From IMG/VR virus record IMGVR_UViG_3300043427_003273, positions 1 through 64,000 of that record: 64,000 bases of DNA; one strand, given 5' to 3'. The translations under genes and the position numbers were made by a program. Numbering within the stretch: the first letter of the stretch is position 1; every line of letters starts with the position of its first letter. Positions 2,944-3,137 of the stretch are shown here, piece by piece. The notes under the pieces were generated by a model. The model was not told where the DNA came from. It made no database searches and saw only the letters and a program-made list of their open reading frames with translations. The DNA is from a virus.

Positions 2944-3137
2944 AACAGTGGTGAGTGTCCACCACTTGCACCAGACACTTGATGTGATTTTCACTGCATT
3001 AGAGGGCAGTGAATAAGAGAAAACACCAAACCTTATTTTCCCTGTTCTCAGGAAGGCACCCAAATGGAGTGGGAGTTGCCTCCAAAGTTTGTCCAGCATT
3101 TTCAATTTGAAAGAATCGAACATTTCCAATCCTTTCA
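2944..3137 (-). ncRNA. candidate structured ncRNA between tRNA-Asn and tRNA-Val
   Basis: Stems GAAAGGATTG/CGATTCTTTC, TTCCTG-AGAA-CAGGGA, TTCACTGC/GCAGTGAA and AGTGGTG-GACACT-CACCACT; that loop is complementary to upstream AGTGTC. Confidence 0.65.

Follow-up and report, generated by a model that had tools for sequence, protein, structure and literature searches.

What does the gap between two neighbouring tRNA genes of a viral tRNA cluster encode when it is 195 nt long and strongly folded? The window analysed here, 64,000 nucleotides in length, comprises positions 1 to 64,000 of the 100.9-kb IMG/VR record IMGVR_UViG_3300043427_003273, a virus sequence estimated to be 52% complete. Positions 2487-3796 form a minus-strand tRNA cluster in which ARAGORN finds tRNA-Arg, tRNA-Ala, tRNA-Gly, tRNA-Asn and tRNA-Val, followed by a small ORF and tRNA-Ser. 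A first-pass annotation of the letters had proposed that a structured RNA belonging to no named family fills the spacer between tRNA-Asn and tRNA-Val (2944-3137) almost exactly. The near-exact fill was borne out, with the boundaries now at 2943-3137 and only 0-1 nt separating the RNA from the tRNAs. The immediate neighbourhood is as follows.

3212-3420, minus strand: manA RNA (RF01745; Rfam 101.5 bits, gathering threshold 55.2), which fills the tRNA-Gly/tRNA-Asn spacer in the same way
3138-3211, minus strand: tRNA-Asn(GUU), the upstream neighbour, with no encoded CCA (ARAGORN and Rfam)
2943-3137, minus strand: the structured RNA, 195 nt, filling the tRNA-Asn/tRNA-Val gap to within 0-1 nt
2871-2942, minus strand: tRNA-Val(UAC), the downstream neighbour (ARAGORN and Rfam)

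A conserved, folded spacer RNA absent from RNA catalogues

The tRNA-Asn/tRNA-Val spacer encodes a conserved, folded non-coding RNA that is absent from the RNA catalogues. The minus-strand RNA of 2943-3137 folds at -66.3 kcal/mol (z = -4.11), an energy equalled by 0 of 200 shuffled sequences, whereas the plus strand (z = -1.24) gives no comparable fold signal. A coding reading of the interval was rejected: the overlapping short ORFs run into the tRNAs, and homologues differ by indels whose lengths are not divisible by three. Elsewhere in the cluster, the small ORF of ~85 aa between tRNA-Val and tRNA-Ser (2576-2830, minus strand) has Cys pairs and the look of a zinc ribbon.

When the interval 2943-3137 was searched against Rfam 15, no family matched, whether at the gathering thresholds or with permissive filters at E<=10, the sole overlap at E<=10 being a chance-level one with snR46 (14.1 bits, E = 8.4). 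The self-cleaving ribozymes, the riboswitches, GOLLD, ROOL, wcaG and abiF of Rfam 15 all failed to match it; we take GOLLD to be RF01998 and ROOL to be RF03087, both within the library searched. Kinship with the neighbouring manA RNA was considered and rejected, there being no match in either direction: the manA model finds nothing on 2943-3137 at E<=10 while scoring the true manA at 3210-3417 with 101.5 bits, and our covariance model R1, run over the whole window with filters off, leaves the minus-strand manA at 3210-3417 unmatched at E<=10. R1 scores 2943-3137 at 218.5 bits and finds a single copy within the 100.9-kb record. A cloverleaf was likewise sought within 2943-3137 and found neither by ARAGORN, which calls only the six flanking tRNAs, nor with the Rfam tRNA clan CL00001 at E<=10.

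Relatives of the RNA could be found among viruses. A distant BLAST of 50,697 phage records returned only Synechococcus phage S-SRM01, a member of the Kyanoviridae that came from a freshwater reservoir and carries the RNA directly after tRNA-Asn at 77% identity (positions 184352-184558 of MW015081.1). Pattern scans of IMG/VR and JGI metagenomes, followed by confirmation with R1, yielded ~75 true viral or metagenome loci with one copy per locus; a further set of pattern-only loci (L047-L051, L086, L088-L091, L093 and L094) proved by R1 to be chance hits and was discarded. From S-SRM01 and the ~75 loci we assembled alignment A3, which holds 38 distinct full-length sequences with a median pairwise identity of 83% and a minimum of 68%. 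The homologues begin 0-2 nt past tRNA-Asn(GUU) in nearly all loci (past tRNA-Phe in one lineage) and end 1-4 nt ahead of the next tRNA in most, the identity of that downstream neighbour varying between Val, Thr, Met, Ala, Leu and none. The majority of the sequencing runs that contain the 2943-3137 stretch are labelled freshwater. Two marine cyanophage spacers of similar position, the 193-nt Asn-Val spacer of S-CAM9 (L081:478-670) and the 207-nt Ala-Asn spacer of RB11-B (L084:550-756), match neither R1 nor Rfam. The RB11-B spacer folds with z = -3.7, and the two may be further uncatalogued spacer RNAs.

The earlier proposal of a structured RNA outside the named families thus holds, since Rfam 15 gave no match, covariation is present and pieces of the RNA occur in RNA libraries; neither of the two outcomes that the annotation had named as counting against it, an Rfam match or an unconserved spacer with no covariation or transcript, was encountered.

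Core, hairpins and the evidence for the fold

The fold that is common to the homologues is composed of the following elements.

3109-3136, minus strand: P1, a variable 11-bp hairpin directly 3' of tRNA-Asn (RNA positions 2-29)
3019-3103, minus strand: the conserved core of ~85 nt (RNA 35-119), consisting of P2, an internal loop, P2b and a three-way junction
3095-3103 with 3019-3027, minus strand: P2, the core-closing helix GAAAAUGCU:GGUGUUUUC (RNA 35-43 with 111-119)
3084-3086 with 3036-3038, minus strand: P2b, the 3-bp helix UUU:AAA that closes the P3/P4/P5 three-way junction (region 3036-3086)
3072-3083, minus strand: P3, invariant save for a palindromic hairpin inserted in most other copies
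3057-3071, minus strand: P4, 80.7% paired, with one changed cell
3039-3054, minus strand: P5, in which U:A becomes C:G in 3 sequences
2990-3013, minus strand: P7, the hairpin UUCACUGC-CCUCUAAU-GCAGUGAA, an optional module, 98.4% paired, with 3 pairs changing on both sides
2968-2985, minus strand: P8, a hairpin with the conserved loop AGUGUC (2974-2979), with 3 pairs changing on both sides
2947-2966, minus strand: P9, the terminal hairpin with loop GACACU (2954-2959), in which 5 of 7 pairs change on both sides

Across the 38 sequences of A3, 95.0% of the cells in modelled pairs can pair, as against 45-52% when the partners are slid by 1-3 columns. The number of pairs that change on both sides is 24 for the model and 4-9 for the slid controls, and the covariation score is 0.209 compared with ~0.06, figures to be read with the shallowness of the family in mind, many covarying cells sharing ancestry. 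Compensatory changes are found in P1 (8 of its 11 pairs), P5, P7 (3 pairs), P8 (3) and P9 (5). All the stems listed in the first-pass annotation are present on the minus strand, the 5' hairpin having 11 bp where 10 had been counted; this hairpin, GGAG/CUCC, UUCCUG/CAGGGA, UUCACUGC/GCAGUGAA and AGUGGUG/CACCACU are kept in the 38 homologues, with compensatory changes in four of these five stems.

The alternative pairings that had been proposed fared less well. All four can form in the window copy, and only the loop-loop pairing AGUGUC:GACACU is conserved among the homologues. The pairing GCUGGACA:UGUCUGGU, which had been thought to close a multiloop and is also the closing helix in the minimum free energy structure of the window copy, is 76% paired, two of its pairs being unpaired in 30 of 37 sequences, and the same is true of two pairs in UUUGGUGU:ACAUCAAG. 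Both helices are restricted to the lineage of the window, 7 of the 37 copies, and they fail elsewhere because P8, a covarying hairpin, takes up their bases. The core is closed instead by GAAAAUGCU:GGUGUUUUC, a helix missing from the earlier description. This helix, P2, is paired in 38 of 38 sequences and shows four one-sided changes, all compatible with pairing, which are no proof when taken alone as, by our own count, about two-thirds of the possible transitions in P2 would preserve pairing anyway. The limits of the conserved block coincide exactly with the strands of P2.

P2 is separated from P2b by an 8x8 internal loop, GGACAAAC / UAAGGUUU, which is nearly invariant. The competing helix CAAACUU:AAGGUUUG, also part of the first-pass annotation, is indeed conserved, yet 5 of 6 changed cells break the pairing, as does a change in L087, and we rejected it. 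For the shorter sub-helix AAAC:GUUU, 3 of 3 variants break the pairing, with a further one in L087; the bases of GGACAAAC / UAAGGUUU were therefore left as an unpaired internal loop. P2b was supported by an all-against-all column scan, in which columns 104:171 can pair in all 38 sequences, 24 of them having U:A and the other 14 C:G; these bases sit immediately 5' of P3 and 3' of P5. This covariation may reflect just one or two events, the family being shallow. P4 reads CUU..AAG in L008 against CAC..GUG elsewhere (by eye). A tertiary pair G45:C82 was set aside as tentative: G:C changes to A:U in six sequences, the adjacent pair fails in 16, and lineage effects are possible.

The GCAA tetraloop of the GNRA type noted earlier in P3 is real in the lineage of the window, and only there. 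In most relatives P3 carries an insertion (A3 columns 112-129, absent from the window copy) that is a perfect palindrome, occurring as CUCUAGAG, CCUUAAGG and CCUUGCAAGG with the self-complementary apical tetraloops CUAG, UUAA and UGCA. The palindrome may be a dimerisation site, or may simply reflect the way in which the hairpin insertion originated.

Sequence conservation is very uneven along the RNA. Identity is 91-95% in the core (measured over the wider block RNA 30-119), 77% in P1 and 86% in the 3' modules. Among the 28 unpaired core positions 12 are invariant, and the stretch AAUAAGGUUUGGUGUUUUC is nearly so, while the neighbouring stems drift in a compensatory manner. Since the core is the most conserved part and the hairpins drift compensatorily, the core is constrained in its sequence and the accessory hairpins in their structure only.

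These observations bear on the idea that the spacer holds decayed tRNA genes, an intron or the remnant of a mobile element with no selected fold. Such arrays do contain degenerate tRNAs and tRNA-like inserts, as at L077, and the perfect palindrome inserted in P3 of most other copies could be seen in the same light. The compensatory changes in five helices, however, reveal that the fold is under selection, the RNA is recognised neither by ARAGORN nor by the Rfam tRNA clan, and there is one copy per locus with no repeats elsewhere. We consider decay to be scarcely credible as an explanation.

A riboswitch or other cis-regulatory leader for a downstream gene, the class in which Rfam places manA, would account for the conserved multi-helix junction and its invariant unpaired bases, and the segments AAUAAGG and UCUUAUU, 98% paired where both are present, could pair as an alternative to the core. 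However, that helix shows no covariation and was rejected from our model, UCUUAUU being absent from five lineages in which the core is retained. The next gene is moreover a tRNA 1-4 nt away whose identity varies, no terminator-like site lies inside the RNA, and no protein gene or start codon follows on which a sequestering helix could act. A regulatory leader is for these reasons very unlikely, although we rate it marginally above decay.

The RNA is modular. P7 is missing in L005, L007, L056, L076 and L087. The P8 stem occurs as GCAGAA/UUCUGC, GCAGGA/UCCUGC, GCGUCA/UGGCGC and CAUCA/UGAUG. The P8 loop AGUGUC and the P9 loop GRCACU are complementary in 94.6% of cells as against 24-50% when slid, with a single genuine compensatory change (G:C to A:U in L020 and L059) and one counter-example (L039); two further cells that appeared compensatory were rejected because they trace to L021, which has a non-homologous 3' module. 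Core-only variants, which consist of P1 and the core and stop 2-3 nt past P2, occur in two independent lineages, represented by L076 (before tRNA-Val) and by L087 and L092 (before tRNA-Leu). L041 bears two extra hairpins, and in L021 and L023 another module takes the 3' position. The length of P1 also varies between lineages, being shortened in some and extended in others, and one clade has two extra hairpins after P1. At L077, P1 stays beside a degenerate tRNA-Asn and a tRNA-like insert parts it from the core.

Several side observations concern the same arrays. An insert of ~200 nt that may be a group I intron seems to interrupt the anticodon loop of one tRNA at L077:11940-12215 (minus strand), and the degenerate tRNA-Asn that lies just downstream has a non-canonical T-loop and is not called by ARAGORN. 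In run X15, one of the RNA libraries described below, a contig with loose ends at 2989 and 3020 contains the P7 region with a further compensatory variant of P8, GCGGAA...UUCCGC, on one side and unrelated sequence on the other, which hints that the P7 module may also occur in other RNA contexts.

The modularity is what might be expected if the RNA were a passive processing spacer, whose hairpins prevent misfolding of the tRNAs or guide RNase E, RNase Z or RNase P and whose excised piece is waste. The RNA is always flush between tRNAs, P1 travels with the tRNA-Asn trailer, modules are freely gained and lost, and in related phages such as S-SM2 tRNA-Asn and tRNA-Val are just 4 nt apart, so that a spacer is dispensable. 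Such a role needs no conservation of sequence, yet the core is 91-95% identical with invariant unpaired bases and is kept even where every 3' module has been lost. We therefore regard a passive spacer as unlikely, while giving it more weight than either a regulatory leader or decay.

Proposed transcription, release and role of the RNA

The explanation that we favour, with a probability of roughly 0.6, is that the RNA represents an uncatalogued family of freshwater T4-like cyanophage tRNA arrays that is released by tRNA processing and whose core acts in trans. The RNA would be transcribed with the tRNAs from the minus strand, as the shared strand and the position of two promoter-like sites suggest.

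3871-3843, minus strand: promoter-like TTGACA-17-TATTAT with TG extension, 11 of 12 consensus positions, before tRNA-Arg
3645-3617, minus strand: promoter-like TTGACA-17-TATGAT with TG extension, 11 of 12 consensus positions, a consensus match only

The second of these lies directly after tRNA-Ala and upstream of tRNA-Gly, manA, tRNA-Asn, the 2943-3137 RNA and tRNA-Val, with a leader of ~125 nt between it and tRNA-Gly (within 3493-3645). No terminator-like site was found within 2943-3137. After tRNA-Ser, at ~2425-2455, a weak, AT-rich hairpin of terminator-like form (TTGACTT-TTGA-AGTCAA) leads into a run rich in T.

Cleavage by the host tRNA 3'-end enzyme behind the discriminator base of tRNA-Asn would generate the 5' end of the RNA, and RNase P, cutting before tRNA-Val, would generate its 3' end. 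Because tRNA-Asn has no encoded CCA, cleavage behind the discriminator base would free the spacer, and because only 0-2 nt part the RNA from tRNA-Asn and from tRNA-Val it should be released as a discrete species. From established tRNA processing, that species is expected to be ~195 nt in length with a 5' phosphate and a 3' hydroxyl. Our view is that the 2943-3137 RNA is probably cut free in this way by the host tRNA-trimming enzymes.

Evidence from RNA libraries was sought by aligning the Logan contigs of four metatranscriptome runs to the tRNA cluster. Such assembled contigs are uninformative as to strand, ends and abundance, and they may stem from carried-over DNA; parts of the cluster without RNA-library cover (the ORF at 2576-2830 and the leader at 3493-3645) were left out of the evidence. 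Run X16 contains a 161-nt contig that lies wholly inside the 2943-3137 RNA (2973-3127), is 96% identical to it with six differences and lacks flanking tRNA sequence. In run X15 a 240-nt contig from the manA spacer (depth 19.9, one differing letter) reads 3375-3419 and then directly 3210-3404. The head-to-tail joint between 3419 and 3210, which could equally be placed between 3420 and 3211 as both bases are A, is within 1-2 nt of the 3' end of tRNA-Gly and the 5' end of tRNA-Asn, and the contig has a 30-nt terminal overlap, consistent with a circular path through an assembly graph of k=31. Whether it was formed in the cell or by ligation in the library, such a joint can arise only from an RNA that begins and ends at just these points. 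It suggests that an excised manA RNA of ~210 nt was circular or became so through ligation, and supports the excision model for the spacers of this array. For the 2943-3137 RNA itself, no head-to-tail joint was reported in the contigs of the four runs.

The functional unit would be the near-invariant core of ~85 nt (P2, the 8x8 loop, P2b and the P3/P4/P5 junction), which we propose binds a specific partner in trans; the nature of that partner is likewise a matter of inference. An antisense target for an invariant 19-mer was looked for in the partial phage record, and none was found there. P1 would be a hairpin of structural significance only, tied to the trailer of tRNA-Asn, the 3' hairpins would be optional additions, and P8 and P9 may form an RNA-RNA contact through their complementary loops.

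One form that such a contact could take is self-assembly. When two loops join in a helix of six pairs, that helix is stacked coaxially with a stem on either side, as TAR-TAR* and RNAI-RNAII illustrate. In the spacer RNA the P8 and P9 hairpins are joined by only 1-2 nt and their 6-nt loops are fully complementary. Given the coaxial stacking and so short a linker, the two loops could not meet within one molecule. We raise as a speculative and rather doubtful extension that the loops bridge released molecules head to tail, producing dimers, rings or filaments. If this were true, the RNA would be a miniature counterpart of ROOL and GOLLD, possibly made from circularised RNA as hinted by the manA joint.

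An alternative trans-acting role is that of an anti-defence decoy, the RNA mimicking a host RNA such as a type III antitoxin or a nuclease target and so disarming a cyanobacterial defence. An anti-defence decoy role has been proposed for toxin-less abiF RNA, and abiF RNA (RF03085) heads the tRNA arrays of relatives that carry the tRNA-Asn-linked RNA. The constraint on the core at the level of sequence would fit such mimicry. One report links phage tRNA arrays to the countering of tRNA-targeting defences and describes how phage T6 escapes Septu, which cleaves tRNA-Tyr, through amplified anti-defence loci (PMC13096335). Against a decoy, no counterpart of the core was found in cellular genomes when one genome each of 185,579 prokaryotic species was scanned with the exact core, scans that detect close copies only. 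We hold the decoy to be improbable, somewhat more so than a passive spacer, and retain the released, trans-acting RNA as our preferred reading.

Relation to other phage RNAs

The tRNA-Asn-linked RNA is an uncatalogued family among the structured RNAs embedded in phage tRNA clusters; the comparisons above establish that the family exists, what structure and position it has, that it is modular and that it is missing from Rfam. The processing of the RNAs from the tRNA region of T4 has been studied. The closest precedents are the T4 species RNAC and RNAD (species 1 and 2), tRNA-region RNAs of unknown role (PMC3014915, PMC9697503), which are also small structured non-tRNA RNAs within the tRNA cluster of a T4-type phage and are transcribed with the tRNAs. 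The same arrangement, a structured non-tRNA RNA on the same strand inside a phage tRNA cluster, is found here and in the ~75 related loci. In contrast to RNAC and RNAD, our RNA is longer, modular and tied to tRNA-Asn, and its processing is deduced from its position. No sequence homology to RNAC or RNAD was detected, the distant BLAST of the phage records having hit only S-SRM01.

The manA motif (RF01745) was described as a candidate 5'-UTR riboswitch in T4-like cyanophages (Weinberg et al. 2010, PMC2864571). It shares with our RNA the T4-like cyanophage hosts, a length of ~200 nt, a fold that has several junctions and contacts of the pseudoknot type, and a flush placement between tRNAs, but it is a separate family, which accompanies the tRNA-Asn-linked RNA in some arrays and is absent from others. 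GOLLD and ROOL are phage RNAs of unknown function, 'often near tRNA islands', that oligomerise through kissing loops, and some of their contacts that were first predicted to be intramolecular proved to bridge molecules (PMC12286853). They are however 3-4 times larger, and oligomerisation of the tRNA-Asn-linked RNA is hypothetical. A comparative-genomics survey of IMG/VR by Fremin et al. (2023, PMC10690425) reported 8,495 unnamed structured-RNA candidates from DNA viruses. The tRNA-Asn-linked cyanophage RNA is not described in the text of that paper, and the family may be among its candidates. Further RNAs occur in the same arrays: L012:12312-12571 holds a tmRNA gene of the cyanobacterial (permuted) type (121.6 bits against RF01851), and the tRNA arrays of several relatives also contain wcaG and abiF RNAs.

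Phage tRNA arrays are usually read as a mere supply of tRNAs. The array spacers of freshwater cyanophages also carry folded RNAs, namely manA, wcaG, abiF, tmRNA and the tRNA-Asn-linked family, and each is placed where the tRNA-processing enzymes of the host would free it without any phage machinery. S-SRM01 and its Synechococcus host are a cultured pair that carries the RNA and is suited to testing, and the natural minimal variants define the functional unit of the tRNA-Asn-linked RNA. The family deserves an Rfam entry, and its function could inform the roles of manA and of RNAC and RNAD of T4.
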